In this document: positions 3,208-64,000 of the stretch, piece after piece
How the letters are laid out: each line of letters starts with the position of its first letter
How positions within the stretch are numbered: the stretch's first letter is position 1
Assembly (NCBI GenBank): GCA_944322785.1
Contig: CALUPW010000009.1
Coordinates: forward strand, 18,497 to 82,496
DNA length: 64,000 nucleotides
Source: Candidatus Gastranaerophilales bacterium
GTDB lineage: Bacteria; Cyanobacteriota; Vampirovibrionia; Gastranaerophilales; Gastranaerophilaceae
Direction: 5' to 3'
The notes under the pieces: generated by a model
Database searches by the model: none
What the model saw: only the letters and a program-made list of their open reading frames with translations
Told to the model about the DNA's origin: nothing
Made by a program: the position numbers and the translations under genes

Positions 3208-3226
3208 TTTTTCTATAGTGTTGTTT
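3196..3226. terminator. Bidirectional terminator hairpin
   Basis: Perfect 12-bp stem acaacactatag / ctatagtgttgt with a ttttt loop, between convergent genes. Confidence 0.7.
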
Positions 3227-4718
3227 ATGCATACATTCCGTAACCGCTGTTAAGTCCGAAACCTTGCATAAAGGGTGTATTAAATTGACTAAACGGCATT
3301 GAAAATAAATTGTTCATGCTAAATCCGTTACTAAAGCCGGAAAGTGCAGTGAGTGAAGAATTTTCAAATGTATTGATTACATAATCAAGTTTTGCTATTG
3401 TTTCTTTTAAACTTGAGTTGTCATCAGCAGCCTTTTTTTCATCATCATGAGCTGCAACAGCTTTGGATGATGATTTTGACTTAGATTTCTTTTCAGAGTC
3501 TGAGGCTGTTTTTGTATCACTCTTTAAATCTTTTTGCGGAGTTTTCGATTCTGCAACTTCAGTGGTATCTGATTTCTCTGATATATTAAATTCACCGTTT
3601 TCTATTGCATTAGTAACATTTGAATATGAAGTTTCAACAACTTTATTTTCGACGCCTTCCTGACTATATTTATCGGCCGCAGTCAAAAGCACCTGTTCTA
3701 AGACCTGAGGGTTATTTTGGGCTTCTTTCGTTATTTGATTAGCAAGTTCATCATGAGCCTTATCAAGCTCGGATTTGCCAAAAAGTTTTTGCGCACCTTT
3801 TCCAGCAAAATAACTTGCTGTAAGACCTATTGCAGCCCCTAAAATACTGCCGACAAGTGTGCCTGCTCCGGGGATGACAGAACCGATTGCGGCACCCATT
3901 GCTGCTCCGGCTTTTGCCCCGACTGCGTATGCTGCTACCTGTGTTCCCGCAATAGCAAGTGTCCGGCCTGTTTGTTTAAGAGCTTTTTTTGTACCTAACT
4001 CTCGTTTTGTTTGAATTATTTCTGGAGCAGCGAATGCAAGATCAATACCTACCGCCGTCAGACAGTTTGCACGTCCGAATTTTGCAAGTTTTCTGAGATT
4101 TTTTGATTCGGTCAGCATTTCGGCTGTTTTTTTGCTTGCTTTGTTGTAGCCGGAATATTTTTTTACCGCATTCCAGGCTTTTCCACGCTTTGTGGTGGTT
4201 TGTGCTTGATTTGCAATTTTTGTTTCTCTAAGTTTTAGTCTTTCGTCTGCAATCTGTTTTTCAATTTCATCTAGTTTATTTGCATAAGCTTTTTTATCAA
4301 GATTTTTTAAATCATTAAAACTGTCTTTGACTTTTGTATAATATTCGTTGCGTTTGCAGTCGATAAGTCCTTTTTTCTGCTGCTGTGTATAGTTAGCTCT
4401 TTCAATATTTTTTATTTCAAGCTCCTGAAGTCTTCTTTGTGCATTTTGAACTTCCATTGCACGCTTGTAGTTTCGTACTGTTTCTTTTTGAGTTGTACCT
4501 TTCAAACTTTCTTCAAACTCTTTTTGAGCAGTCCATACGGATTTTCTGTTTTTCCAGTTAGGCGCAAGAGTATTGAATCCACGGAAAGCCTTTTCTGCAC
4601 CTACTGTCCATAAAAATGATGTTGTATCTGCGGAATATTCTTTTTCAACAGGTTCGTAGCCGAGTGCATAGCGTGTAACTGTTTTTAAATCATTATTAAC
4701 ATTAATACTGTCGCTCAT
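3225..4718 (-). CDS. Glycine-zipper / coiled-coil protein, unknown function (paralog of 4861..5703)
   Basis: 497 aa with no signal peptide. Lys/Glu-rich coiled-coil centre. Hydrophobic glycine zipper GAKAGAAMGAAIGSVIPGAGTLVGSILGAAIGLTASYFAG. Ser/Lys-rich tail ending NTPFMQGFGLNSGYGMYA. Shares LTAVGIDLAFAAPEIIQTK / ..LFGK / TPFMQ blocks with the next gene. Confidence 0.75.
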   Translation of the reverse strand: MSDSINVNNDLKTVTRYALGYEPVEKEYSADTTSFLWTVGAEKAFRGFNTLAPNWKNRKSVWTAQKEFEESLKGTTQKETVRNYKRAMEVQNAQRRLQELEIKNIERANYTQQQKKGLIDCKRNEYYTKVKDSFNDLKNLDKKAYANKLDEIEKQIADERLKLRETKIANQAQTTTKRGKAWNAVKKYSGYNKASKKTAEMLTESKNLRKLAKFGRANCLTAVGIDLAFAAPEIIQTKRELGTKKALKQTGRTLAIAGTQVAAYAVGAKAGAAMGAAIGSVIPGAGTLVGSILGAAIGLTASYFAGKGAQKLFGKSELDKAHDELANQITKEAQNNPQVLEQVLLTAADKYSQEGVENKVVETSYSNVTNAIENGEFNISEKSDTTEVAESKTPQKDLKSDTKTASDSEKKSKSKSSSKAVAAHDDEKKAADDNSSLKETIAKLDYVINTFENSSLTALSGFSNGFSMNNLFSMPFSQFNTPFMQGFGLNSGYGMYA

Positions 4719-21354: not shown

Positions 21355-23304
21355 TTAACTGAGTCGCAAAACCTCATAAATATCCATCTTTTTGGCTTTA
21401 CCCCTGATTGTAACTTCACTTATTTTGATAACGTCTGCAATATTACTTACATACGAATATGTGGAACTGCTTATTAAAAAGTTCGTTCTGTAAACTTTGT
21501 TGTAACTTTCAATGCGGCTTGCAAGGTTTACAGTGTCACCGATTACCGTGTATTCAAGCCGTTTTTCGGAGCCTATGTTCCCGACAAAAGCGTCGCCTGT
21601 ATTAATTCCGATGCCGATTTCTATTTTGGGCTTGCCTTCAAAAATCCATTTGTCCTGAAGTTCTTCAACCTTTTTAAGCATTTCGTATGCGCATTTGACT
21701 GCATTTACAGGATGGTTTAAATCTTGAATCGGCTCGCCGAATATCGCCATTACCGCATCTCCGATAAATTTGTTTATTACACCGTTATACTTTGAGATAA
21801 TAGGTTCAATTTCCGTAAAATATTCATTCAAAATCATGGAAACTTCCTCGGCAGTCATCTTTTCGCTCATACTTGTAAAACCTCTTATATCTGCAAATAA
21901 GACGGTTACATTTGCTCTTTTTCCGCCGAGTTTGATGTCGTCAATATTTTTTACGACACTTTTCATTATGTCCTGAGAAAGATATTTCCCCATTGCCTGT
22001 TTGATTTTTTCTTTGTTCTTGCCCTCAATTATAAACCGGTAGGAATATGCGAATATCATCGTGATTAACTGAATTGCAGGAGGTGTTATTACATTAATCC
22101 CGAAGTTGTTTTTGTAACAGAACGCAGCTATCACAAAATATCCGACAGCTGTAGCTGCAAGAATGAAAATTGATTTAAAAAACGACAGACGGCTGATTAT
22201 AACAAAGGTAAAAATACTCAACAATGCAATAATCAATACATCAAGCCCTAATGGTGAAAGTTTCATGATGTGGTTGTTAAGCATGTTGTTAAGATTAAGC
22301 GCCTGAATATCAACCCCCGGATGTTCCGGCAGCATAGGTGACGGAAGCGCATCTATAACTTTAATTGCGGCAGCCTTTGCATTTGCACCCACAAATACTA
22401 TTTTATTGTTAAATTCTTCGGGATTTATTACCGGTGGTTTGCCTGATTTAATGTTTTCGAGTGACTCTATTAAATCAATTGCGGAATATTTTTTGTGTGA
22501 ATACGAGGTGTTCGGACGTATTTTATAGAACTTTAAGTAATTTTGAATGCCGTTATATGTTGTAAAAGATGGTATTCTTAAACCTGTTTTGTCAATAACT
22601 ATGCTGTCATCATAAATCGTCAGCTTATCTGTATCATTTAAAAGCATGTACATTCTCATAGCAAGAGATGGATAATATTTACCATCTAGCGAAATAATTT
22701 GATCTGCTGTGATAAGAGTACCGTTTGCAGCAGAACGGGTAGAGTTTACGGAACCGGCATATTGTACGGCATCAAAATATTCAGACGGGTACATTGAAAA
22801 ACTCTGATATTTTGACGGATATACAATTTTTCGTTTGTCCTGAATATTTACTTTGAATTTATCGTAGAAATTTTTTGAATAAATTTGACCGGTCTTTTCG
22901 TCAGGGAATTTGTCGTCAATCATGCTGAAGCCGACAACGAGATTGTTTATATGTCTTACAGTATTGAAAAAAACATTATCAGAGTCAGGATTTTCATGGT
23001 CGAGATTTGCAACAATCGCATCAAAACCAATCAGTTTTGGATTTGAATAATTGTTCAGATAGTCGAAAATTTTCCCGTACAGTTCACGTTTCCACGGCCA
23101 TCTGTACTTTGCAACAGATTTGTCGTCAATAACAACTACCACAACATCTTCGGGGGCATGCTCATACGCAGTAAAGTTTTTCACCATAAAATTGTATGCA
23201 TTAGGTTCAAAAATCTGCCATGACACAAGAATTAAAACGCATGAAAGAATTATATAAAAAATAAACGAATATATAAAAAATGCCTTTGATTTTAACTTTT
23301 TCAT
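21355..23304 (-). CDS. CHASE2 sensor domain-containing class III adenylate/guanylate cyclase
   Basis: N-terminal TM helix, then an extracytoplasmic CHASE2-like region (VVVVVIDDKSVAKYRWPWKRELY), a TM cluster, and a cyclase domain (VTVLFADIRGFTSMSE, FIGDAVMAIFG, GINTGDAFVGNIGS, YTVIGDTVNLASRIES). Confidence 0.85.
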   Translation of the reverse strand: MKKLKSKAFFIYSFIFYIILSCVLILVSWQIFEPNAYNFMVKNFTAYEHAPEDVVVVVIDDKSVAKYRWPWKRELYGKIFDYLNNYSNPKLIGFDAIVANLDHENPDSDNVFFNTVRHINNLVVGFSMIDDKFPDEKTGQIYSKNFYDKFKVNIQDKRKIVYPSKYQSFSMYPSEYFDAVQYAGSVNSTRSAANGTLITADQIISLDGKYYPSLAMRMYMLLNDTDKLTIYDDSIVIDKTGLRIPSFTTYNGIQNYLKFYKIRPNTSYSHKKYSAIDLIESLENIKSGKPPVINPEEFNNKIVFVGANAKAAAIKVIDALPSPMLPEHPGVDIQALNLNNMLNNHIMKLSPLGLDVLIIALLSIFTFVIISRLSFFKSIFILAATAVGYFVIAAFCYKNNFGINVITPPAIQLITMIFAYSYRFIIEGKNKEKIKQAMGKYLSQDIMKSVVKNIDDIKLGGKRANVTVLFADIRGFTSMSEKMTAEEVSMILNEYFTEIEPIISKYNGVINKFIGDAVMAIFGEPIQDLNHPVNAVKCAYEMLKKVEELQDKWIFEGKPKIEIGIGINTGDAFVGNIGSEKRLEYTVIGDTVNLASRIESYNKVYRTNFLISSSTYSYVSNIADVIKISEVTIRGKAKKMDIYEVLRLS

Positions 23305-27627: not shown

Positions 27628-28986
27628 TTATACGATTGACTGTAATATCAAAAGTTTTTGATTTTCAGTTAATTTTTTTATTTGATTAATAAGTTTTTCT
27701 GTTTTTGCATCAGGCATTTCAGAAATTCCTGCAGAAGCTTCAATAATTTTAAACTTTGCCGCAAGATTTGCTATTTTAAGTTTAAAATCAGCAATATTAT
27801 CGTCAGTCCAGTCTTTAGGAACAAGTTTTCCGTTAATAAATGTAGCAATTTTTTCTATTTTTTTCAAATCATCAGATTTTGACGAGGATTTAAGAGTGTT
27901 ATAAAGTATTCTAAATTCACTTGAATTTAGAAATTCTTTAACATTTTCAAACCTCTTTTCCAAATTTGCAAAACTTGTTTCATTAAAATTTTCAAACATA
28001 AAATCTTGCAACTCTGAAAGAAGCGTTTTATATCCGTTTTTTAGTTCATTTAAAGCGATTAAAAAGTTTTTTGCGAGTTTTTCATCAGTTATATCTTTTT
28101 CTGACAGCACTGCCGGAATATCATTTAAAAACAACTTTAGCGCATCTTTTGAATTTATAATTAAATTCCTTATTTTCAGGACTTTTTTAGTAAGCCTCCG
28201 TGTTGATAATGTGTATTTCTCCAGCGATTTAATTGTTTTAATAACGGCTGAAGTTAAATTTATCAGATTAGGAGCCTTATCCGGTATAATTTCAGTGCAT
28301 AAAGTTTTAAGATATTTATTATCCGGAGTTTTAAGTATTTTAATCTCAAACTTATCGGGTAAACAAAGCATTCTGTCAAAAATCAACGGCGTAAGCTTTA
28401 AATGAAATTCGCCTGATTCGTAAACTGTTATTTTGTCTTTATTTTTGTCAAGAATATATAGCAGCATAACCGAAATAACAGATTTTGTCAGTTTTGAATT
28501 AGCAAATTTGTTATAAATTTCATTTAATTTTAGCATTTTATTTTCAGTATTAGCAGACAAAATATAATTTTCAATGGCTGCCATTATTTTAATAAAATGA
28601 TTATTTTCTTCAAGAATTTCACGTTTTATATAATTTTCAAGGCTGTTTTCATTTATATTTTCACCTTCAATAATATGTTTTGAAAGCTGCCGTATTGCTC
28701 TTGTTACAAAAGGCGGTGTTTTTTCTAGTTTTAAATATTCCAGATTGGTGTCCGGCTCATCAGAATTTTTTTTAACGGGATTTTTCTTTAAATACTTCTC
28801 TCCCATTTCAGTTAATATATAGTTTTTAGCTTTATCTGATACACAAATAAGACCATTCTCAATTGCAAATTTTCTTAGAAGCAAAATCTGAGAATTAATA
28901 AGTCCAGTAATATTACATGCGTTTTTTAGTGTAAAAAGATCGGGATATTTTTTGATACATTGTAAAAGTTTGTTTAAATAAAGCAT
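27628..28986 (-). CDS. Hypothetical 452-aa helical protein with possible N-terminal winged-helix domain
   Basis: ORF-track start is 29076. The ATG at 28986 follows AAAGGAGAA. N-terminus LKNACNITGLINSQILLLRKFAIENGLICV..ILTEMGEKYL looks wHTH-like. The rest is Lys/Asn/Leu-rich with no catalytic motif seen. Confidence 0.55.
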   Translation of the reverse strand: MLYLNKLLQCIKKYPDLFTLKNACNITGLINSQILLLRKFAIENGLICVSDKAKNYILTEMGEKYLKKNPVKKNSDEPDTNLEYLKLEKTPPFVTRAIRQLSKHIIEGENINENSLENYIKREILEENNHFIKIMAAIENYILSANTENKMLKLNEIYNKFANSKLTKSVISVMLLYILDKNKDKITVYESGEFHLKLTPLIFDRMLCLPDKFEIKILKTPDNKYLKTLCTEIIPDKAPNLINLTSAVIKTIKSLEKYTLSTRRLTKKVLKIRNLIINSKDALKLFLNDIPAVLSEKDITDEKLAKNFLIALNELKNGYKTLLSELQDFMFENFNETSFANLEKRFENVKEFLNSSEFRILYNTLKSSSKSDDLKKIEKIATFINGKLVPKDWTDDNIADFKLKIANLAAKFKIIEASAGISEMPDAKTEKLINQIKKLTENQKLLILQSIV

Positions 28987-29152
28987 AAGTTCTCCTTTCT
29001 GTTTTTTTTTTTGCATGCGAAAAAGGCACACCTGTTCATTGTGCTGATTATGAACAACTGTGCCGTCTAAATGCATATGTGCGGGCGTGAGTCTCGTTAA
29101 TCTGTATATTTATTAGAGCATGTAAACTCAAATTTTGTCAATCATCAAATTC

Positions 29153-31082: not shown

Positions 31083-33059
31083 TTAACCGAACATTTTAAA
31101 GTTTCGTTCAACGTTTTTGTCAATAACAGATTTTATTGAGTCATATTCAGTCTGTAAAGATTCATGCTCGGTGTCAATATTTTTAAGTTCAAGGTCATAT
31201 CTTTGATCTTTTGCCTGAATTTTTTGTGTTTCCCGTTTATATTCGGCTTCGGCTCTTGTAATTTCAAGTTCAATTGTATCTTCTGTGATATCGCTGCAGT
31301 TTGAATACATTGTTGAAATCCATTGCTGTTCGTCATCAACCTGAACCATTGATAAAAGCCCGCTTTCAAGTGCATATTGAATCCATTCTGTACTTTCAGT
31401 TAATGCTTTTTCAATTTTTTGATAGCCGTCTTCGTTCATTTTATTAAATATGTTTGTGTACCATTGAACTTTGGCATCAGCATTTTCATTAGGATTATTT
31501 TTATCAATCCATGTATATTTTGGTGCGCCGTATTGTGCAATCATTTCATCAATAAGATATATATCCTTAATTGCCTCAAAGTTTGCCTGATAGTCAACGT
31601 CAACTTCTTCGCCGTTAACCATTTGCGTTAAAGTTATGGTTGTATCGCCGTCAAGATTTGTTGTTTCCCGTCCGGAATTTAAAATCCATTCCATGTCATC
31701 AAGTTTGTCATAATCACCTTTGCCGACGTCTTCTCCAAAGATAAATATTGACAGTTGTTTTGCAGCTTCTTCATACGCCTTTTTCTCGTCGGGGGCATCA
31801 TTTGCAAAGTAATCTCTGTCCATTTGTGACAAAACATTGGTTTGGAAATATCTGTAAACAGTTTTTAAAGCTTCGGCTGCGCCGGCTTCATCCATAACAC
31901 TGCTGATATATGCAGCAAGAGGGCTTGTTGTGAAGGTTACACTGCCTGTTTCTGTAGAGGTTGAGCCGTCTTCTTCGGTTTCCGTAACTGAATAATTGAA
32001 ACTGTATTCACCGTTATTATTTGTCAATCCTGATACTGTATAACCGTTTTGACCTGCAACAGTAAGATTACCGTTTTCATCTTTTGAAACAATAAAGTTG
32101 CCGCCGTCTATAGTATATCCATCCCCGTTATCAGAGATATCTGTTGAATTGTTAACAACTATACTGCCGCTTGAATCAAATTCAATATATTCATGCAGGA
32201 AGTAATCCATTGCTTCATTGAAAACAGTTGTATCTGATTCACCGTCTTCTTCTTCGGTTTCTTCTTTTATAACACCTTTGCCAAGAAGTTCTGAGTATAA
32301 TTTGTCGAGATAATTCAATGAACTGCTAATATCACTTTTTGAAGGCGGGTTTTTACCGCTATCTGTGTTATACTGCAAAACTTCCGCATATTTAGCGTCG
32401 TAATTCATGGTTTCTCCACTCGGAACATAGTCCTGGAGATATTCTTTCATTTGTTTGATTACAGCTGCTGTATATGCTTTGTCTGCTTCCAGATAATCAT
32501 TCAACAATGTTTCATAAACCATAACTTCGGTTGAATCAAGTGACAACTCATATCCATAGTGAAGTCCGGAAATTCTGTTTCCGTTGTCATCATATTCAAC
32601 ATCACCCTCATATCTGGTTTTAAGATCATCACTAAGTTTGTTGCTTTCCCAGTATGAGGTTGTTTCTTTTTCTAGTCCCTGTTGTTTTAAAAATTCAGTC
32701 AAGGCATCTGTTTCCGGATTACGTTCGGCTTCTTTTAATGCCTGTTCATATTTTGCCGCATCAAGTTCACTCACAACAAGTTCACCTGATTTGTTAATCA
32801 AACCGTACTGATTGTTATACGAACTGTATGCCGTCAGGTTATTAAAAGTCAACTGTTGATACATTTCGTTTCCGAGAGTATCTTTGTTGGACATCATCAA
32901 CTGAACCTGATTAAGCGCATTTACATACTTCTCGCTTGCCTTTGAGGTGTCATCCGTAAGACGCATTTTAGCATTGTTAATAAGCTGCGCACGAAGCTCG
33001 TTATCAGACATACGAGATGTAATTGACAATAATCTGGCCTGTGATGCTGCCATTCCCAT
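31083..33059 (-). CDS. Large acidic protein of unknown function with conserved helical N- and C-termini
   Basis: 658 aa with no signal peptide. N-terminus MGMAASQARLLSITSRMSDNELRAQLINNAKMRL. Asp/Glu/Thr/Asn-rich centre. C-terminal heptads ..KIQAKDQRYDLELKNIDTEHESLQTEYDSIKSVIDKNVERNFKMFG. The termini resemble those of 47732..48262. Confidence 0.75.
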   Translation of the reverse strand: MGMAASQARLLSITSRMSDNELRAQLINNAKMRLTDDTSKASEKYVNALNQVQLMMSNKDTLGNEMYQQLTFNNLTAYSSYNNQYGLINKSGELVVSELDAAKYEQALKEAERNPETDALTEFLKQQGLEKETTSYWESNKLSDDLKTRYEGDVEYDDNGNRISGLHYGYELSLDSTEVMVYETLLNDYLEADKAYTAAVIKQMKEYLQDYVPSGETMNYDAKYAEVLQYNTDSGKNPPSKSDISSSLNYLDKLYSELLGKGVIKEETEEEDGESDTTVFNEAMDYFLHEYIEFDSSGSIVVNNSTDISDNGDGYTIDGGNFIVSKDENGNLTVAGQNGYTVSGLTNNNGEYSFNYSVTETEEDGSTSTETGSVTFTTSPLAAYISSVMDEAGAAEALKTVYRYFQTNVLSQMDRDYFANDAPDEKKAYEEAAKQLSIFIFGEDVGKGDYDKLDDMEWILNSGRETTNLDGDTTITLTQMVNGEEVDVDYQANFEAIKDIYLIDEMIAQYGAPKYTWIDKNNPNENADAKVQWYTNIFNKMNEDGYQKIEKALTESTEWIQYALESGLLSMVQVDDEQQWISTMYSNCSDITEDTIELEITRAEAEYKRETQKIQAKDQRYDLELKNIDTEHESLQTEYDSIKSVIDKNVERNFKMFG

Positions 33060-54031: not shown

Positions 54032-54062
54032 AAAAATCCCGCAAAATATGCGGGATTTTTTA
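54032..54062. terminator. Bidirectional terminator hairpin after rpsG
   Basis: aaatcccgca-aaata-tgcgggattt flanked by A/T runs. Confidence 0.8.
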
Positions 54063-55670
54063 TTTGATAAATTTTTGAATATCGTTTTCGGGGGTTGTAA
54101 CAGGTTGAATTTGATAAACATTTTTCAAAGCAGATAAAATATCAGGGTTAATTATAAATGGCGGACACTGTGAAAGAAAAATGTTTTTCGCTCCAGAATT
54201 TGATAAATTGATTATAGTACTCAGAGAATTGATATCACACTTTGTAAAAAAGAATGTGAGAATGTCGGACACTATAGAAAGTTTATCAAAGAAAAGTTTC
54301 ATAACTCGGTAAACAGCTTCTATATTGCCGCCGAGATTTATATACAGTTGATTTGTATTATCTGAATGATAAGAAAATGTCACAATAAAAGTGTCCTGCG
54401 GCAAAAGCGTAAACAATTTTTTATAGTAACTTTCCTGAATTGATGAATAATCTGCCATTCCGATAACAACAACATGTTTTATTTCATTGTTTTTTATTTT
54501 TTGCGATAAGTCAGCTATTTTTGATTTCAATGTTTCTTCATTGTAACCTGCTTCAACAGATGGCATTTGCCGTCCTTTTGAAAAACCTTTTGAAATTTCA
54601 ATTGAGTCAAATATTTCGGAATAATCGGACGAATCGACCTTTATAACACCTTTAGGAGTAATATTTTCAGTAGAAAATACTTTTCCTCTGTATAGATAGT
54701 CAATATTTGGATAGTTGCTTTCTGTTAAAACAATAGGTCCGGGAAATGTCGCAAAATCTAATATGCAATTGACTCTACAGGATCCATAATCACCTTTCAG
54801 ATGTTTAAATTGTTTAAATTTTTCATATGCATGAGCAATTATTAAATCAGAATGCGTATAAACCGAAAAATCAGCATCGGAGGTTTTATCAAGAATATCA
54901 TATAATACATTTAAATTTGAGCCGGAAACAAGCAAAGCTTTACCTGGTTCTGTTGATTTTGATACCATAAGCTCTGATATTTTTCCGAATTTGTCATACT
55001 GAGCATTGGAAATCAATTCTAAAAGCCCGCAATTTGCTTTTGTTAATTTATTTATGTATTTTATAAGTTCATCGTTAGAATATTTTCTATTATTTAAAGC
55101 ACAAAGACATTCAAGAATAGTAAAATATACATCATCATCCGATTTGTCAAAACTTTTCAGCTTTGATAAGTTTAAAACAGCACTTTTAATAACAATTACG
55201 AGGATTTCAGATAAATTTTTTCTAAAAGCCGTCACTTTTCTATAATTTGCTAAAAAGGATTTATCCCCGAGTTTTATAATTTCAGAAAGTGTCATTTTGG
55301 GGGTTAATTTAAACTCAGGCTTTATATCTTTACATTCTATATTGTTTTCATTACAAAAATTCAAATATTCTTTTCTTGCATAAAGAAGTTTTGAATAAAC
55401 TTTGCTGACAACCTCAAGAAGTTGAATATTTGAATATTTTTCCGCATTGATAAATACCGGAACTGTTTCCATTATAACTTCCATATTGTCATAATAGGAA
55501 ATATTAAGTTCAGTCTGTTTTATTTCGTAATATGCGAGCAGACTTAAAAAACTAAATACAACTTCCTGTAACGCTTTTATATTCGGAGCCGTCGAACAAT
55601 TGCCGCGTGCAACACAATCGTTATAATCGTTTCCGTCTTCATGAAATTTATTAGAAAACATAACCTTCAC
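54060..55670 (-). CDS. Hybrid-cluster protein (Hcp/prismane) homolog lacking most cluster-ligand residues
   Basis: Colinear with Hcp as recalled from memory. GKALLVSGSNLNVLYDIL..VYTHSDLIIAHAY..FKHLKGDYGS..FATFPGPIVLTESNY compares with GKCILISGHDLKDLYNLL..VYTHGEMLPAHGY..FKHLVGNYGS..FARFPGPIVMTSNCI. The C-terminal ..GAKNIFLSQCPPFIINPDILSALKNVY compares with ..[27 protein letters not shown]. Confidence 0.75.
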   Translation of the reverse strand: MKVMFSNKFHEDGNDYNDCVARGNCSTAPNIKALQEVVFSFLSLLAYYEIKQTELNISYYDNMEVIMETVPVFINAEKYSNIQLLEVVSKVYSKLLYARKEYLNFCNENNIECKDIKPEFKLTPKMTLSEIIKLGDKSFLANYRKVTAFRKNLSEILVIVIKSAVLNLSKLKSFDKSDDDVYFTILECLCALNNRKYSNDELIKYINKLTKANCGLLELISNAQYDKFGKISELMVSKSTEPGKALLVSGSNLNVLYDILDKTSDADFSVYTHSDLIIAHAYEKFKQFKHLKGDYGSCRVNCILDFATFPGPIVLTESNYPNIDYLYRGKVFSTENITPKGVIKVDSSDYSEIFDSIEISKGFSKGRQMPSVEAGYNEETLKSKIADLSQKIKNNEIKHVVVIGMADYSSIQESYYKKLFTLLPQDTFIVTFSYHSDNTNQLYINLGGNIEAVYRVMKLFFDKLSIVSDILTFFFTKCDINSLSTIINLSNSGAKNIFLSQCPPFIINPDILSALKNVYQIQPVTTPENDIQKFIK

Positions 55671-55907
55671 CTACATATCATTTTCATCTTTTAAAAATTT
55701 TATTATCTCATCAGACTCATACATTTTAAGATTACTTTTTGAGTCGTAAATAAACGGAACCTGCGCTTTCCCGCCGATTTTTAGAAGATTATCATAATTT
55801 TCGACATCTGATACATCAAGTTTATTATATTCAATTTTATTTTCGTCAAGATATCTCATGACTTTTTTGCAGTATGGACAGGTTTCAAGAATATATAAAT
55901 CAAACAT
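55671..55907 (-). CDS. Glutaredoxin-like protein
   Basis: CPYC active site in LYILETCPYCKKV. QVPFIY. 78 aa. Its stop abuts the start of the Hcp-like gene. Confidence 0.8.
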   Translation of the reverse strand: MFDLYILETCPYCKKVMRYLDENKIEYNKLDVSDVENYDNLLKIGGKAQVPFIYDSKSNLKMYESDEIIKFLKDENDM

Positions 55908-58554: not shown

Positions 58555-58812
58555 ATGGAAAAGAATTTTTTCGTTTACATATTGCAAACTGAAGACAATA
58601 AATTGTACTGCGGTTATACGGATGATGTTAATAAAAGGTTTGAAATGCACAAAAACGGAACAGGTGCAAAATACACACGTGCACATAAGCCTGTTAAAAT
58701 TGTTTATAACAAAAAATTTTCCACAAAGTCGGATGCTATGAAGGAAGAATACCGGATTAAAAGACTTTCAAGAGCTAAAAAATTGGAATTAATTGCAGAC
58801 TCAAACTATTGA
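58555..58812 (+). CDS. Small stand-alone GIY-YIG nuclease-domain protein (UPF0213-like)
   Basis: FFVYILQTEDNKLYCGYTDDVNKRFEMHKNGTGAKYT. Confidence 0.8.
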   Translation: MEKNFFVYILQTEDNKLYCGYTDDVNKRFEMHKNGTGAKYTRAHKPVKIVYNKKFSTKSDAMKEEYRIKRLSRAKKLELIADSNY

Positions 58813-60239
58813 TTATTCTGTTCGTCAGCAGCAGGAGCCTGTTCGGTTGAGGTTGTTGAATCATCTGGCTTATTAAATTTTTCCTGTAATTTTTGCTGCT
58901 TTTTCTGTTCTTTTTCAAGTTTTTTCTGCTCTTTTGCTTCCTGTTTTGCCTTTGCTTTAGCTTCTTTTTCAATTCGTTTTTGTTTTGCCTGCTCAAGAAG
59001 CTCTTCTGTCTTTTCAAGAGAATCGTTTGTTGAGGTTGAACCTTCTACTTTATCTCGAATTTTGTAGTCTTCAAGCAAATACTTATGCTCTTTTTCCATT
59101 TCTTTGATTTTATTTTTATATTCGGTTTCAAGTTCTTTTACTTTCTTTTCATATTCTTCTTTTTTAGCTTTTTCATCAAGCTCATCTTCATGTTTTGCCT
59201 GTTTTTCTTCTATTTCAAGTATTGATGGCGGAACAACACCGGACTTTATCATTTTTATTCCGTTCATACTTATCTTAACATCATTCGGAGAAAGAGAAAC
59301 AAGCATTGAACGGGTACCTTTTATATCAATACTCCAGTTTCCTAAAAACACAGGCGCTTCTCCTGTGTATGCATAAGCTGACAAGACAATTCTGTCAGGA
59401 TTGTTCAGGTCAAATCCTAACGGGTATATATCCCACCTGTAATCACGTAAATTTAAATTTTTATACTCTTTCCAGTAATATATTATCGCATCACGAATTT
59501 CATCTAGTCTGTATGAGGTTTTTGTATCAAAATCGTAGACAATTGCATTTGTCTGCCATATACCATCCAGCCGTCCGCCTATTTTTTCCTTTACAAGGAG
59601 TTTTGTACCGTCAGTCGAAAAATCAATCGGAGTTAAAGTTCTGAAAGAGCCGTAATCATTAATTGATTTTGTAGTAGACAAAATCGGATCAGGATTTCTA
59701 TGCATAACATTTGCTTTTTTTACCTTTGAAAGCGGATTGCCTTTCTCCTCAAGCGGAATGACAAATAAATCACAGGTCACAACCGCATTTTTGGGATAAT
59801 AATAAACTGACGGATAAACAAGTATCCTGTAATCAGGCGAAACAACCCCCTGTGCATTAATCTGTCGTCTGCGTTTAAAATCTCTGCCTAAAGATATTTC
59901 AGGACTACCTGGAGGATTGTTATATCTTACAAGTTCATAATCCGGCTGCGGTACATACTTCATATCAGCGGCTTTCTCTGGCTTTGGAATAGGAATTTCT
60001 TCCTGAGTTTTGTCTTTGGGAGCAGACAGCATTTCATATTCTTCCATTGTCATAAATCCGGAGGGGGTCAAATTTTTCTTTTTTCTTTCAAATTCTTCTT
60101 TTGCATCTTCTTTTTTTACATTGTGTAAATATTGAGCTTCTTGTTCTCTTGCACCAGCGGGCGAAGAGGAAAACGAAAATGCATTAACTGCCATATTTGA
60201 CAGAAATAATGCTAAAATCAAAACTCCTGTACGTAACAT
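58806..60239 (-). CDS. Secreted protein with beta-rich central domain and Lys/Glu-rich coiled-coil tail
   Basis: Signal peptide MLRTGVLILALFLSNMAVNAFS. C-terminus ..KKVKELETEYKNKIKEMEKE..EKEAKAKAKQEAKEQKKLEKEQKK. Its start directly abuts the stop of the response-regulator gene. Confidence 0.7.
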   Translation of the reverse strand: MLRTGVLILALFLSNMAVNAFSFSSSPAGAREQEAQYLHNVKKEDAKEEFERKKKNLTPSGFMTMEEYEMLSAPKDKTQEEIPIPKPEKAADMKYVPQPDYELVRYNNPPGSPEISLGRDFKRRRQINAQGVVSPDYRILVYPSVYYYPKNAVVTCDLFVIPLEEKGNPLSKVKKANVMHRNPDPILSTTKSINDYGSFRTLTPIDFSTDGTKLLVKEKIGGRLDGIWQTNAIVYDFDTKTSYRLDEIRDAIIYYWKEYKNLNLRDYRWDIYPLGFDLNNPDRIVLSAYAYTGEAPVFLGNWSIDIKGTRSMLVSLSPNDVKISMNGIKMIKSGVVPPSILEIEEKQAKHEDELDEKAKKEEYEKKVKELETEYKNKIKEMEKEHKYLLEDYKIRDKVEGSTSTNDSLEKTEELLEQAKQKRIEKEAKAKAKQEAKEQKKLEKEQKKQQKLQEKFNKPDDSTTSTEQAPAADEQNNQ

Positions 60240-60905
60240 TTATACAAGACCCTCTTTCATAGCCATTGAAATAGCTTTTGCACGTGAGGTCACGTACAAT
60301 TTTTGAAGAATACTGTGAACGTGGGTTTTCGTTGTCGAAATTGTTATTACGAGTTTTTCTGCAATCTGCGGATTTGTAAGCCCGTCAACAATAAGAGCAA
60401 GAACCTCCATCTCACGTTCCGTAAGCCCGTAAAGATTTTTGCCAAGTTTATAGTTAATTTCACCACGTCTTTGCGGAGCTGCAGTGCTGCGTCTTATATT
60501 AGTTAAAACTACTTTTGCAATTGCCGGATCAAGCCAGCCGGCACCTTCACTTACAGCAAGAACTGCAGATATTGTCTGCTCAGAAGTTGCACCTTTAGTA
60601 ATATATCCGTCCGCACCTGCCTGAAACGAGTCAAAAATATCATCCTCATCTTCACGTGATGTGTACATTAGAACTTTTATCTTCGGATTTACAAGCTTAA
60701 TTTTTTTGGTTGCCTCAATACCGTCTATTGTCGGAAGTCCGATATCCATAATTACAACGTCAGGGACAAGTGAAAGTGCCATATCGACACCTTCTTGACC
60801 GTCTGCAGACATGCCGGCGATTTTAATATCCGTATTTTTGCTTAATATTACGGACAAACCCATACGTGCCATATCATGATCTTCTACTATTAACACCTTA
60901 ACCAT
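60240..60905 (-). CDS. NarL/LuxR-family response regulator (REC + HTH)
   Basis: VLIVEDHDM..VVIMDIGLPTIDG (phospho-Asp context) and LTEREMEVLALIVDGLTNPQIAEKLVITISTTKTHVHSILQKL. Confidence 0.9.
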   Translation of the reverse strand: MVKVLIVEDHDMARMGLSVILSKNTDIKIAGMSADGQEGVDMALSLVPDVVIMDIGLPTIDGIEATKKIKLVNPKIKVLMYTSREDEDDIFDSFQAGADGYITKGATSEQTISAVLAVSEGAGWLDPAIAKVVLTNIRRSTAAPQRRGEINYKLGKNLYGLTEREMEVLALIVDGLTNPQIAEKLVITISTTKTHVHSILQKLYVTSRAKAISMAMKEGLV

Positions 60906-62484
60906 TTACAACCTGTCTTTCTTCGCTTGACCTGACTACGTCCGTTAAAAGAAACGTGAATTCACTGCCTTTATTTAACTTGCTTTCAACCCAGATTTTT
61001 CCGCCGTGAGCCTCAATAATTTGTCTGGAAAGATATAAACCCAAACCGGTGCCGGTTGAGCGTTTGCGGCTGGTTCCTTGAGAAAATCTCATAAATAAAT
61101 GCGGAATATCGGATTGCGGAATTCCGTTTCCGTTATCCTCAACGGAAAATATTAAATCTCCGGATTGTGCTTTTAGAATAACTTTTATATGCCCGTCTTT
61201 ATTGGTGTAGTTCACTGCGTTTCCGCACAAATTGGTTATTACCCGTTTTAGCTCTGATTTGTCCGCATAAATTTCAAGCTTATCGTCAAAATCGCATTCA
61301 AATTCAAGATTTATGCCTTTATTTTTTGCAAGCGGCAAAAGTTCTTCAATGGATTGTTCTACCAGCGTTCTTGGTGCAAAAAGCGTTTTACAGAGTTCAA
61401 GTTTTCCGCTGTCAAACCTGTAAACTTCAAGAAGAGCATTAACAAGTCCGAGTAAATCCTCATTACTTTGAAGCATTGTAGATAAAAGGACTTTCTGTTT
61501 ATCTTCTAACGTACCAAGAGAACCATCCAAGAAAAATTTAAGTGTTTGAATTGCTGCAAGAAGAGGTGTACGAAGATCATGCGTTAAAGTTGCAATAAAA
61601 TCATCCCGCAATCTTTCGGTTTCTTTTTGTGCGCTTATATTTCTTATTACCCCTACGTATTTTTCAGGAATTTCATCAATTTCACCTGTTATTGCTGCAA
61701 AATTGATTTCCACAGGAGTATGAGCACCGCTCAATGAATTCACTATATAACAATCTTTTAAAAGGACTTCCGAATTATCCGTATCAAGACCGAATAGTCC
61801 GCCATCATCCGATATCATATCAACTTTACAGCCTTTTACTATCTGCGTAAATGTTCGGTTTAAAATAGCATTTTCATCAACACCTGTCATATTCTCACAC
61901 GCAGGGTTAATTTGTTCAATTCTGCCGTCTTTATCCAGAATGATAATTCCGTCAGCACAGTGGCTTATTATTCCGCTCAATTTCTGATTTGCTTCGGACA
62001 AATCATGTGTGCGTTCTGCAACTAGCTTTTCCAGATCATTTGAATAAATTTCCAATTGTCTTTTGGCTTCTTCCAACTCTTTAATTTTTTGACGCAAATC
62101 ACTTAACAAATGACTCCGCTCAACTCCGTTTCGGATATTCATGAGCAAATCATCATTATCCCACGGTTTTTCAATATACTTGTAAAGTCCGACGTCATTA
62201 ATCGCTTTTATTGCATTTTCTTTATCCGCATAACCTGTCAAAAGTATCATACTGGTTTCGGGATAAAGTTTTTTTGCTTCCCGTAAAAATTCAAGCCCGT
62301 TCATTTCAGGCATTAAAAAATCAGAAATTATTAAATCAGGAGTATTGGTTTTAATATATTCAAGTGCCTCTACAGGGGAATTAAAAAATACACCGCCTTC
62401 TATCCCTTCAACTGCAAAAAGGGTTTTAAATGCTGAGGTAACCATTTTTTCATCATCTACTGCAACTATTTTCCCGTTTATCAT
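60898..62484 (-). CDS. Hybrid sensor: N-terminal receiver + PAS + HisKA/HATPase histidine kinase (no TM segment)
   Basis: REC (IVAVDDEK..LIISDFLMPEMNG..K), a PAS-like segment, H-box THDLRTPL, N-box CGNAVNYT, and G-boxes EDNGNGI and GTGLGLYL. Overlaps the RR start by 8 nt. Confidence 0.9.
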   Translation of the reverse strand: MINGKIVAVDDEKMVTSAFKTLFAVEGIEGGVFFNSPVEALEYIKTNTPDLIISDFLMPEMNGLEFLREAKKLYPETSMILLTGYADKENAIKAINDVGLYKYIEKPWDNDDLLMNIRNGVERSHLLSDLRQKIKELEEAKRQLEIYSNDLEKLVAERTHDLSEANQKLSGIISHCADGIIILDKDGRIEQINPACENMTGVDENAILNRTFTQIVKGCKVDMISDDGGLFGLDTDNSEVLLKDCYIVNSLSGAHTPVEINFAAITGEIDEIPEKYVGVIRNISAQKETERLRDDFIATLTHDLRTPLLAAIQTLKFFLDGSLGTLEDKQKVLLSTMLQSNEDLLGLVNALLEVYRFDSGKLELCKTLFAPRTLVEQSIEELLPLAKNKGINLEFECDFDDKLEIYADKSELKRVITNLCGNAVNYTNKDGHIKVILKAQSGDLIFSVEDNGNGIPQSDIPHLFMRFSQGTSRKRSTGTGLGLYLSRQIIEAHGGKIWVESKLNKGSEFTFLLTDVVRSSEERQVVNG

Positions 62485-62544: not shown

Positions 62545-64000
62545 TTAAATTTCTGCCAGTATTTCGACTTTCATTTCGGCTGCCGGCAAAAGTTCAGAAT
62601 AAGATATTACTTTAATATTTTCAATATACAGGGAAAGCAAATCAAATAAAGGTTTGCGGATTTTGGGTTGTACAAGAAGCACCGTATCATACTTATGTGC
62701 ATTCAATCCTGACAACGTGCTGCGAATACAGGTGATTAACTTTTCAATCTGTTCTTGCGGAAGTTTAAATATGGTACTAAATTCCGTATATTGCACCGCT
62801 TCTGAAAGTGTTTTTTCAAGTTCCGGATTCAGTGTTACTGTATATAAAATTATACCTGTGTGTGATTTTACAGAATATTTATCACATATCTGCGCTGCCA
62901 TTGCAGCTCTCAGACTCTCGACAAGAACATAAGACTGAGTGTTAAATCTTGCATAGTCACAAAGTCTTTCAAATATAAGAATAGTATCCTTAACAGAAAT
63001 TTCTTCTCTTATCAGAGATACAAGTATCCGCCTTAAATCAACTGCGGATATTCTGGACGGAATCAGATCATTTACAAGTGTCGGATCCTGTGTGTTTACA
63101 ATTTCCATAAGTTTTATAACATCAGTTCTTGTCAATATATCGTTTACATTTTTTATACAGCATTCTCTTAAGTGTTTACGAAGAAGCGTTGAAATTTCCT
63201 CGTTTTTTGTATTTTTGCCGACAAAAAATTTATCTCTCATAATCCCGCGGACATAAATGCGGAATTCATCCGGCTTTAAGTCCTTATCATCCAGACATCT
63301 AACATTCGGGATAATATACCCCAGTTCATCCGTCAATTCTTCCCTTACTTTAGAAATCAGAGGAAGCATAACGTTTTCGCACTCCGGATCCGCATAATGC
63401 AATAAACCCGTTCCAAGTCTGATAGATAAAACATCAACGCCAAGCCGTTCGTACATTCCGTTCGGGCTGTTTAATTCTACAGAATTTTTAGTCTGTTCAT
63501 TGTTTTCTGATAATTTTGCATTCTGTTCGATTCTGTCAAATAGGTCGGCTTCTATAACAATGTCAATTATATAAACCGCCATACCCAAAGCCAATATAAT
63601 TAATGCTGCCGGTAAATCTTCTTTTGACATAGGGATTAATCCGAAATAAATTAAAGGCAAATAAAAAATCGCAACAAGAAACATTAAGAGCAATAATACT
63701 CTGCAAGGATTATTTTTAATGTATTTTTTTATTTTTGAAATCTCTGACAGCTGCCCGTGTTCACTGACAAATTTATCGGTTTTTAAATTTTCATCCTGCG
63801 CACCCTTATCCTGCTCCTGTTCTTGCTCTTGTTTTTCTGAGTAAAAAGACTGGGAAAGTGCAATGGTATAAGTTTCTTTATCTATCCCTCTGTCGGAATA
63901 TATCTGCGCAAGAGTTTCTCTGTAAATATTTTGAACAATATCTTCAAGTTTTTTAATCCTGTCGGGATTTTCTATACTTTCCTCAGTCAGAGGTTCAAGC
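62545..64000 (-). CDS. FlhA/SctV cytoplasmic-domain (FHIPEP C-terminal) homolog on a two-helix anchor; 5'-partial (frame open to window edge)
   Basis: The track lists 62545..63693, but the frame has no stop up to 64000 (..LEPLTEESIENPDRIKKLEDIV..SEKQEQEQEQDKGAQDENLK..). Two TM helices are followed by VLSIRLGTGLLHYAD..ISKVREELTDELGYIIPNVRCLDDKDLKPDEFRIYVRGI, LIPSRISAVDLRRILVSLIREEISVKDTILIFERLCDYA and VLLVQPKIRKPLFDLLSLYIENIKVISYSEL. All of these are colinear with FlhA_C. Confidence 0.7.
   Translation of the reverse strand, partial: LEPLTEESIENPDRIKKLEDIVQNIYRETLAQIYSDRGIDKETYTIALSQSFYSEKQEQEQEQDKGAQDENLKTDKFVSEHGQLSEISKIKKYIKNNPCRVLLLLMFLVAIFYLPLIYFGLIPMSKEDLPAALIILALGMAVYIIDIVIEADLFDRIEQNAKLSENNEQTKNSVELNSPNGMYERLGVDVLSIRLGTGLLHYADPECENVMLPLISKVREELTDELGYIIPNVRCLDDKDLKPDEFRIYVRGIMRDKFFVGKNTKNEEISTLLRKHLRECCIKNVNDILTRTDVIKLMEIVNTQDPTLVNDLIPSRISAVDLRRILVSLIREEISVKDTILIFERLCDYARFNTQSYVLVESLRAAMAAQICDKYSVKSHTGIILYTVTLNPELEKTLSEAVQYTEFSTIFKLPQEQIEKLITCIRSTLSGLNAHKYDTVLLVQPKIRKPLFDLLSLYIENIKVISYSELLPAAEMKVEILAEI

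Follow-up and report, generated by a model that had tools for sequence, protein, structure and literature searches.

An FlhA-related protein of Candidatus Gastranaerophilales combining an undescribed helical domain with an FlhA cytoplasmic region devoid of its second subdomain

Introduction

As a universal and highly conserved core of every flagellum and injectisome, FlhA/SctV exhibits a cytoplasmic ring that is known mainly as the dock of the export gate. In the nonamers formed by its cytoplasmic domain (FlhA_C or SctV_C), the linker and the third subdomain (SD3) constitute the main ring-building elements, and the cleft between the first and second subdomains (SD1 and SD2) the chaperone dock. 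The present work deals with a gene for an FlhA-like protein located at one end of a stretch of 64,000 nucleotides, hereafter the window, from a Candidatus Gastranaerophilales bacterium of the Melainabacteria/Vampirovibrionia (GenBank assembly GCA_944322785.1, contig CALUPW010000009.1, positions 18,497 to 82,496 of the forward strand). What is new here is an architectural variant of the FlhA family, together with a new domain family, referred to as ND, which occupies the N-terminus of the protein.

The FlhA-like gene and its product

On the minus strand of the window, the frame running from 63999 to 62548 comprises 484 open codons, closes on a TAA stop at 62545-62547 and meets no stop up to the window edge. 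The start assigned to this open reading frame (ORF) at an internal TTG at 63693 (382 amino acids, 62545-63693) is an artefact of the ORF listing, the frame being open to the edge. The Pfam model FHIPEP (PF00771) matches the ORF with 174 bits (cut-off 29.1, E 5.4e-51), exclusively through the C-terminal part of the profile, the best stretch running from position 452 to position 654 of 657. With the NCBIfam model FlhA (TIGR01398), the score of 173 bits falls short of the equivalog cut-off, set at 772, which therefore designates a partial homologue. By sequence, the closest solved structure is the FlhA_C of B. subtilis (3mix, E 2e-33), followed by the FlhA_C of H. pylori and SctV_C chains; by structure, Foldseek comparison of the AF2 model with 3mix gives a TM-score of 0.78 (E 1e-17), and about 50 more FlhA_C/SctV_C chains match. 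Ahead of this domain, two hydrophobic helices (fragment residues 100-124 and 129-151) exhibit Kyte-Doolittle peaks of 2.7. In these respects, a first-pass annotation, made from the letters of the window alone, is borne out: the peptides it quoted are all present in the minus-strand translation, an FlhA/SctV cytoplasmic domain does end the ORF, and two hydrophobic helices do precede it. Its description of the sequence further upstream proved correct in that this sequence runs off the window edge without a stop, and incorrect in presenting it as just Glu/Gln-rich, for it consists of the C-terminal third of a folded helical domain, then an acidic linker.

The missing N-terminus is supplied by P0001, a protein of 593 amino acids that is 99% identical to the window fragment. 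In a search of the protein collection, about 50 clusters of 567-611 amino acids covered 96-100% of the fragment at 38-99% identity; next came canonical FlhA (~695 amino acids), with 36-43% identity and a coverage of the fragment between two thirds and four fifths. Full-length relatives of the same architecture were retrieved from >30 independent contigs (ENA, JGI, Logan and GTDB metagenome-assembled genomes), and the same gene is found on two loci of GTDB metagenome-assembled genomes labelled Candidatus Gastranaerophilales bacterium. Derived from the alignment with canonical FlhA and from an AF2 model of the full-length protein (mean pLDDT 73), the layout of the 593 residues is as follows: ND (1-165), an acidic linker (166-194), two transmembrane (TM) helices (209-233 and 238-260), the FlhA linker (261-298) and FlhA_C (299-593). 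The corresponding features of the window, given from the N-terminus to the C-terminus of the protein, are:

63832-63999, minus strand: C-terminal third of ND (residues 110-165), the first 109 codons lying beyond the window edge; ND profile E 4e-16
63745-63831, minus strand: acidic, Glu/Gln-rich, disordered linker (EKQEQEQEQDKGAQDE...); pLDDT <50 for residues 163-193
63547-63702, minus strand: two-helix membrane hairpin, with TM1 at 63628-63702 and TM2 at 63547-63615
63433-63546, minus strand: FlhA linker (FlhA_L), including the motif SPNGMYERLGVD (63433-63468), invariant or nearly so in 32 family members
63214-63432, minus strand: first part of SD1 of FlhA_C, with G305 (Salmonella G368); 43-45% identity to canonical FlhA
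63196-63213, minus strand: scar of the SD2 deletion, with about 45 amino acids gone (39 of 47 SD2 columns absent)
63136-63195, minus strand: second part of SD1 of FlhA_C, with K384 at the T490-equivalent position, by alignment to canonical FlhA
62896-63135, minus strand: SD3 of FlhA_C (QDPTLVNDLIP...IFERLCDYARF); 62-63% identity to canonical FlhA
62545-62895, minus strand: fourth subdomain (SD4) of FlhA_C and TAA stop (62545-62547), by alignment and structure match

Close relatives of 593, 595 and 597 amino acids (P0001 compared with P0002) differ by the number of EQ repeats in the acidic linker, which suggests slippage in a GAACAG-type repeat within this disordered region.

Elements of FlhA kept and lost

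Where canonical FlhA has an 8-TM gate domain with the FHIPEP loop (between TM4 and TM5), P0001 exhibits a soluble ND and then two TM helices. As the 593-residue relatives carry ND and not TM1-6, the cytoplasmic domain is indeed detached from the 8-TM export gate, and the case of a normal full-length FlhA merely cut by the window edge is ruled out. The two remaining helices are colinear in the alignment with TM7-TM8 of canonical FlhA, with which they have an LP...G...I-x-AD pattern in common. When the hairpin region was aligned by hhalign with the whole N-terminal half of canonical FlhA, a single alignment was returned, namely with P0065 261-338, i.e., TM7-8 plus linker, at E 0.12, which is not significant alone. 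In relatives bearing SD2, single Pfam FHIPEP alignments begin at profile positions 261-307, upstream of the cytoplasmic domain. Judging from these alignments, the hairpin is probably a remnant of TM7-TM8 of FlhA and not a new anchor, contrary to the non-canonical one of the first-pass annotation. A Lys-rich segment directly precedes TM1 of the hairpin. Since the chain crosses the membrane twice and ends in a cytoplasmic domain, ND would be cytoplasmic too.

Residues of functional interest in FlhA_C were mapped by aligning canonical P0065 to full-length Salmonella FlhA (36hw), followed by the family alignment, and five canonical FlhA sequences were compared. P288, M291 and E293 align with Salmonella E351, W354 and D356 and are identical to the canonical FlhA residues compared, the linker ending in an invariant NPNxMYERLGVD motif. 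As these three linker residues bind the neighbouring subunit in Salmonella (work behind PDB 7ctn), P288, M291 and E293 may, by analogy, have the same subunit-binding role. G305, the equivalent of Salmonella G368, is invariant. The fate of the chaperone pocket is different: for D456, F459 and T490, i.e., pocket residues mutated in PDB 6ai1, 6ai2 and 6ai3, the first two equivalents have been lost with SD2 where the five canonical sequences hold D and Y/F, and the position of the third is K/R/T/E/E/N in the family vs an invariant T in the five canonical FlhA. Considered by part, identity to canonical FlhA is 39% for the linker, 43% and 34% for the two halves of SD1, 37% for SD4 and 63% for SD3. 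FlhA_C thus retains SD1, SD3 and SD4 of its four subdomains and has lost SD2, so that the ring domain is not the complete one that had been supposed. From this pattern of conservation, the ring-building parts appear to be the best kept, and the docking site to have gone.

The ND domain

ND is an all-helical domain of ~165 amino acids, predicted by AF2 from a 77-sequence alignment as a bundle with a pLDDT of 93 and a pTM of 0.88. No match to it was found in Pfam, NCBIfam or PADLOC, and the comparison of its model with the PDB by Foldseek returned nothing significant (best E 0.25, TM-score 0.38); ND is, going by its model, an undescribed domain with a confident new fold. Its signature reads F-x-Y-K ... 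E-W-T-F-H-K-x-x-D-L, where F5, Y7, E70, W71 and D78 are invariant. An exhaustive search with the ND profile matched 270 cluster representatives, including 209 at E <1e-10, and revealed several architectures, namely (i) ND followed by two TM helices and FlhA_C without SD2 (the family of the window protein), (ii) ND followed by 2-4 TM helices and a complete FlhA_C, (iii) ND followed by a complete FlhA_C with zero TM helices, (iv) tandem NDs, (v) ND with TM helices only, and (vi) a large soluble class of ~300-380 amino acids. ND-FlhA_C fusions as a whole possess from 0 to 4 TM helices, and some keep SD2. No second ND or FlhA_C gene was found in the window by profile search. At locus L023 (6317-12337), three ND genes lie in tandem, encoding proteins of 681, 193 and 785 amino acids, the last with two NDs and FlhA_C; this suggests a local expansion of ND paralogues.

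Besides these fusions, ND is found in flagellar gene clusters. At L012, the gene order is flgB-flgC-SLT-fliE-fliF-P0189-fliH-flhA(699 amino acids)-fliI, where the ~320-residue P0189 (10001-10969) matches the ND profile at E 1e-51, exhibits the motif EWTFHK..DL and sits in the slot held elsewhere by fliG. Scanning metagenome contigs with the ND motif yielded 67 loci with 70 ND genes (L017-L083). As many as 45 of the 70 have fliF as their upstream and/or fliH as their downstream neighbour (26 with the two, most of the others being cut by a contig end), and canonical flhA usually comes next after fliH in such clusters; 24 are non-fusion genes outside flagellar clusters, mostly for ~235-residue proteins, and a single one is an ND-FlhA_C fusion (in L023). 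In L012 (10971-15151) and in many of L019-L082, canonical flhA lies between fliH and fliI. This gene order is, to our knowledge, unusual.

The segment that follows ND in the slot proteins is weakly FliG_N/MgtE_N-like (5tdy FliG_N, E 0.02). Sub-threshold Pfam matches after ND concern at most 9 of 32 slot proteins (4 FliG_M, 4 MgtE_N and 1 FliG_N, with possible overlap), and no recognisable FliG_M or FliG_C was found in slot proteins by Pfam. The position of P0189 in the fliG slot raised the idea that ND itself is a FliG domain; this found no support, Foldseek returning no FliG match and the slot-protein profile nothing significant against PDB sequences. Between the NDs of SD2-bearing fusions and those of slot proteins, identity averages 37% with a maximum of 59%, vs 43% between slot proteins; for the window subfamily, the corresponding identity to slot NDs drops to ~25%. 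Of the ND genes outside the slot, the one at L017 (a 245-residue ND+TM paralogue on a 226-kb contig, 14.5x) and the full flagellar cluster L054 (87-kb contig, 15.4x) originate from the same human-gut sample, P61old, which hints that non-slot ND paralogues and flagella co-exist in one genome.

Origin and evolution

ND being common to the window protein and to a fliG-slot protein whose gene is one away from flhA, the window protein is very probably a chimera of two neighbouring genes of the flagellar operon. As regards architecture and origin, it is, with the same high probability, a 593-residue paralogue of FlhA in which ND has taken the place of TM1-6 and of the FHIPEP loop. Such a protein may most simply have arisen by duplication then internal deletion, by which the 5' part of the slot gene would have been joined to the 3' part of flhA, with fliH lying between them. 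Because the slot protein with the same domain occurs in clusters with canonical flhA, the window protein is still evolutionarily tied to the flagellum.

A neighbour-joining tree was built from 304 FlhA_C columns for 49 representatives, with three outgroups (B. subtilis, H. pylori and 12dv). Canonical and ND-fused FlhA_C group together against the three outgroups in 100/100 bootstraps, fusion FlhA_C being 49-50% identical to the canonical FlhA compared and 26-27% to the outgroups. The canonical FlhA_C form a tight clade (87% identity, 100/100), and the ND-fused sequences are 42% identical. The SD2-less proteins constitute one clade nested among SD2-bearing fusions; on this tree, the SD2-bearing branches are the older ones, the window protein falling in the derived clade that lacks SD2.

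Among close relatives, the ratio of non-synonymous to synonymous substitution rates (dN/dS) is 0.175 overall, 0.11 for ND and 0.15 for FlhA_C; the hairpin, with about 0.5, is the stretch of the gene under the weakest constraint. Read from these ratios, both domains are under purifying selection and the gene is not a pseudogene. Between genomes, identity amounts to 93% for S7, 86-90% for the response regulator described below, 83-86% for the kinase and 44-49% for the FlhA-like protein; hybrid-cluster protein aside (possible paralogy issue), the FlhA-like gene is the fastest-evolving of the neighbourhood.

Genomic neighbourhood

Downstream of the FlhA-like gene and on the same strand, three genes follow one another closely:

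60898-62484, minus strand: hybrid histidine kinase REC-PAS-HisKA-HATPase_c, 528 amino acids, 60 nt past the stop of the FlhA-like gene
60240-60905, minus strand: LuxR/GerE-type response regulator (REC and GerE), 221 amino acids, whose start overlaps the kinase stop by 8 nt
58806-60239, minus strand: 477-amino-acid protein with a signal-peptide-like N-terminus, whose start abuts the regulator stop

No TM segment is predicted in the kinase, its maximum hydropathy being 1.19 over 19 residues. By consensus scan, the 60-nt gap between the FlhA-like and kinase genes is devoid of a terminator-like site. The first-pass annotation had asked whether the same truncated architecture and the same neighbours exist in related genomes; they do, the downstream kinase being common to all 11 family loci (L001-L011) and the order of the genes around it being unchanged there, although identity of the FlhA-like protein goes down to 40%. 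The two genes are not always adjacent, as at L008 (4575-6308), where an extra gene for a 577-residue HATPase_c_3 protein stands between them. The 477-residue protein (58806-60239) exhibits a Lys/Glu-rich C-terminal tail, finds no match in Pfam or PADLOC, and is kept in all related loci at 58-70% identity. As for membership of a defence system, PADLOC gave nothing for the FlhA-like protein and generic domain matches only for the kinase and the regulator.

Several other genes of the region were recorded. Redox-stress genes stand on both sides, with desulfoferrodoxin and ferritin-like genes directly upstream of the FlhA-like gene, beyond the window (L001 8957-9857), and, further downstream than the kinase operon, genes for glutaredoxin and for a hybrid-cluster (prismane) protein (window 54060-55907). 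A CHASE2-adenylate/guanylate cyclase is encoded in the window (21355-23304) and a similar gene lies ~4 kb from P0173 (L013 4125-6236), possibly by coincidence. Window ORFs at 31083-33059, 27628-29076 and 3225-4718 (658, 482 and 497 amino acids, respectively) are without Pfam match at E <1e-5.

Regarding flagellar genes, the 20 largest window ORFs are housekeeping or non-flagellar, no other window ORF was matched by 14 flagellar proteins of a related flagellar cluster, and no fliPQR, flhB, fliI or fliF was found in the 64-kb window or in the 20-kb flanks of L001-L011. The absence of type III machinery nearby, which had been put forward at the outset, thus applies to the window alone, as the order often keeps flagellar genes (Soo 2014 supplement; bioRxiv 10.64898/2026.04.24.720558). 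About 25% of Gastranaerophilales genomes possess complete flagellar sets, and the remainder keep flhB, fliI, flgG, etc. (bioRxiv 10.64898/2026.04.24.720558). A subset only of the flagellar genes was reported in 6 of 9 genomes (Soo 2014), and the "non-motile" members of the supplementary table of that work list FlgB, FlgC, FlgF, FlgG, FliE, FlhA, FlhB, FliI, FliJ, FliP and FliR. This table gives one FlhA per genome, with gene ids of FlhA and FliE four apart (Soo 2014); this FlhA is apparently the canonical one, the spacing of the ids fitting fliE-fliF-slot-fliH-flhA. Among the flagellar genes common to four Melainabacteria genomes, Di Rienzi 2013 counted two flhA, one in the cluster and the other on a separate contig.

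Functional considerations

The identity and origin of the window protein are well supported; its function is a hypothesis, although this part of the type III machine has probably been put to some use that is not export. Without TM1-6 and the FHIPEP loop, and without the SD1/SD2 chaperone pocket, it would be neither an export gate nor a chaperone dock. Going by the conservation of its sequence, we consider it about an even chance that the protein is a ring-forming platform that does not export. ND and FlhA_C would both stand in the cytoplasm, with the hairpin tethering them to the membrane; an FlhA_C-type ring would still be formed, via the conserved linker motif and SD3, and is predicted because these (63% identity for SD3) are the best-kept parts; and this platform, working without export, would offer ND and the remaining surfaces of FlhA_C to soluble partners. 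Among candidate partners, the most concrete one is the REC-PAS histidine kinase, a TM-less protein whose gene lies 60 nt downstream, with the LuxR-type regulator. A specific coupling to this adjacent two-component system, suggested by analogy, is a more doubtful proposition. In its widest and equally tentative form, the proposal is that ND-FlhA_C proteins might make up a lineage-specific family where the ring has been taken outside secretion, serving as autonomous signalling or scaffolding hubs, either tethered or soluble, here feeding a kinase, in flagellum-less gut Melainabacteria. No description of an ND-FlhA_C fusion was found in the searched literature.

Several points weigh against this set of proposals. 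At the level of the structure, the pTM of the full-length AF2 model is only 0.47, so that the relative arrangement of the predicted domains is not fixed by it, and the oligomeric ring is a proposal made from conservation, the structure being predicted as a monomer only. The homology of the hairpin with TM7-8 is statistically not significant for the window subfamily (E 0.12). In the rooted tree, canonical FlhA is nested inside the fusions, which is probably a long-branch effect in a neighbour-joining analysis with only three outgroups. That the canonical FlhA set, like most ND proteins, comes from Melainabacteria is itself inferred, as a taxon name accompanies a single canonical FlhA match, P0065 from "Cyanobacteria bacterium RUI128". 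As regards the kinase, a weak promoter-like match is found in the 60-nt gap, and the region is colinear over >20 kb in all family genomes, which makes of the adjacency weak functional evidence. Kinase and regulator are 83-90% identical where the FlhA-like protein is 44-49% identical, indicating no tight co-evolution, and the regulator is of the LuxR type and not a sigma-54 activator as in FlgSR. Lastly, SD2-bearing paralogues occur in unrelated non-flagellar neighbourhoods (L013, L015 and L016) without evident common neighbour.

Among the other explanations, the one that survives best, yet is unlikely in our view, casts the protein as an accessory or regulatory subunit of a flagellar-type type III secretion system (T3SS) still present in the cell; it would join, cap or compete with the canonical FlhA nonamer via its linker and SD3; ND would then contact the partner of the slot ND at the face of the MS ring, and export would be tuned or blocked. 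This is consistent with a linker motif identical to that of the canonical FlhA compared and an SD3 63% identical, as well as with ND being common to a flagellar-operon protein whose weakly FliG_N-like segment presumably binds FliF. Also in favour, Gastranaerophilales described as non-motile keep FlhA, FlhB, FliP, FliR, FliI, FliJ and rod genes (Soo 2014 supplement; bioRxiv 10.64898/2026.04.24.720558); the co-occurrence in one sample of the ND+TM paralogue of L017 and the flagellar cluster of L054 (14.5x and 15.4x) goes in the same direction, as would the two flhA genes of Di Rienzi 2013, one of them on a separate contig, if the second is of the ND type. On the contrary, no ND-FlhA_C gene was encountered in or beside a flagellar cluster (L001-L011; L013/14, L015, L016, L023), and an identity of 44-49% in the fusion vs about 87% in canonical FlhA_C is unexpected for part of a conserved ring.

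The first-pass annotation had seen in the protein a free-standing FlhA_C ring reused as a dock for chaperones or for substrates of secretion. The protein does retain the FlhA_C fold, and canonical FlhA_C is a chaperone-substrate dock (structures 6ch2, 6ch3 and 7qij), but with SD2 and the D456 and F459 equivalents deleted and the T490 position not conserved (canonical D, Y/F and T), this role is improbable, all the more so as the pocket motif is degenerate even in SD2-bearing fusions (P0173 "AAPEDKSPCYW", P0162 "ICYYTQEQCFW") and no chaperone-like or T3SS genes are found nearby. Least probable by far is a decaying remnant of flagellar loss, i.e., a pseudogene or relic, or else a normal flhA distorted by assembly or gene calling. 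It is true that complete flagella have been lost by many Gastranaerophilales (Soo 2014; bioRxiv 10.64898/2026.04.24.720558), and the gene is the fastest-evolving of its neighbourhood with a hairpin dN/dS of about 0.5, but about 50 clusters and many independent contigs exhibit intact ORFs of constant architecture, both domains have a dN/dS of 0.11-0.18, the N-terminus consists of a conserved domain predicted to fold with confidence and not of a frameshifted TM region, and canonical flhA is a separate, far more conserved gene in related flagellar clusters.

Known systems and significance

Considering the non-exporting platform alongside known systems, the closest is canonical FlhA (P0065; flhA of L012), with which the window protein has in common the linker, SD1, SD3 and SD4 (49% identity over FlhA_C, 63% over SD3) and a hairpin at TM7-8. 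Unlike canonical FlhA, it is deprived of TM1-6, the FHIPEP loop, SD2 and the D456/F459/T490 pocket and carries ND instead; moreover, its gene is located outside a flagellar cluster and evolves much faster. Injectisome SctV proteins (YscV/InvA/MxiA/EscV) exhibit the same cytoplasmic fold (Foldseek E 1e-13 to 1e-15 with 4a5p, 2x49, 7osl and 6wa6), but they are more distant than FlhA (98 bits with NCBIfam SctV); the window has no injectisome genes, and the losses of the 8-TM domain and SD2 set the window protein apart from SctV just as from FlhA. The fliG-slot protein (P0189) has ND in common with the window protein and is encoded one gene away from flhA, but it differs by a short weakly FliG_N/MgtE_N-like segment instead of TM helices and FlhA_C, and by an ND ~25% identical to that of the window subfamily.

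In Chlamydia, orphan FlhA, FliI and FliF are likewise flagellar T3SS proteins kept without a flagellum and thought to be reused with other partners (PMC2830194). With PRK05910, the NCBIfam model of the chlamydial type, the window protein gives only a weak match (E 6e-5). Chlamydial FlhA presumably keeps its multi-TM gate domain and has no added domain, unlike the window protein. Another parallel is the FlgS-FlgR system of Campylobacter and Helicobacter, where a TM-less kinase is under the control of the cytoplasmic face of the T3SS, the MS ring and FliG (PMC3760246, PMC3930126). In Campylobacter, the cytoplasmic kinase FlgS depends for its activation on both the flagellar T3SS and the FliF-FliG complex (PMC3760246), FlhA is needed for this checkpoint even when export is not (PMC3760246, PMC3930126), and the anti-sigma factor FlgM of H. 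pylori is thought to act through FlhA_C (PMC3930126). The window similarly exhibits a gene for a TM-less kinase 60 nt after a gene for FlhA_C plus a flagellar domain, a likeness by adjacency alone; unlike in FlgS-FlgR, the window kinase is a REC-PAS hybrid, and the regulator is LuxR/GerE and not sigma-54-dependent (NtrC-type).

We know of no described family in which the ring domain has been kept and both the membrane channel and the chaperone pocket discarded. The ND-FlhA_C family indicates that selection can maintain FlhA_C for a purpose different from the delivery of substrates. ND-FlhA_C proteins, with or without SD2 and with 0, 2 or 4 TM helices, may provide natural minimal constructs for studying the ring on its own. 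If the proposal of hubs outside secretion were true, the fusion would predict, by the Rosetta-stone argument, that in the canonical flagellar basal body of this lineage the slot protein touches the FlhA_C ring through its ND, a contact not seen so far. The position of ND, most often in the fliG slot in the metagenome loci, bears on the way the basal body is built in a little-studied, uncultured sister lineage of Cyanobacteria, and also on the purpose of the partial flagellar gene sets of gut Gastranaerophilales.

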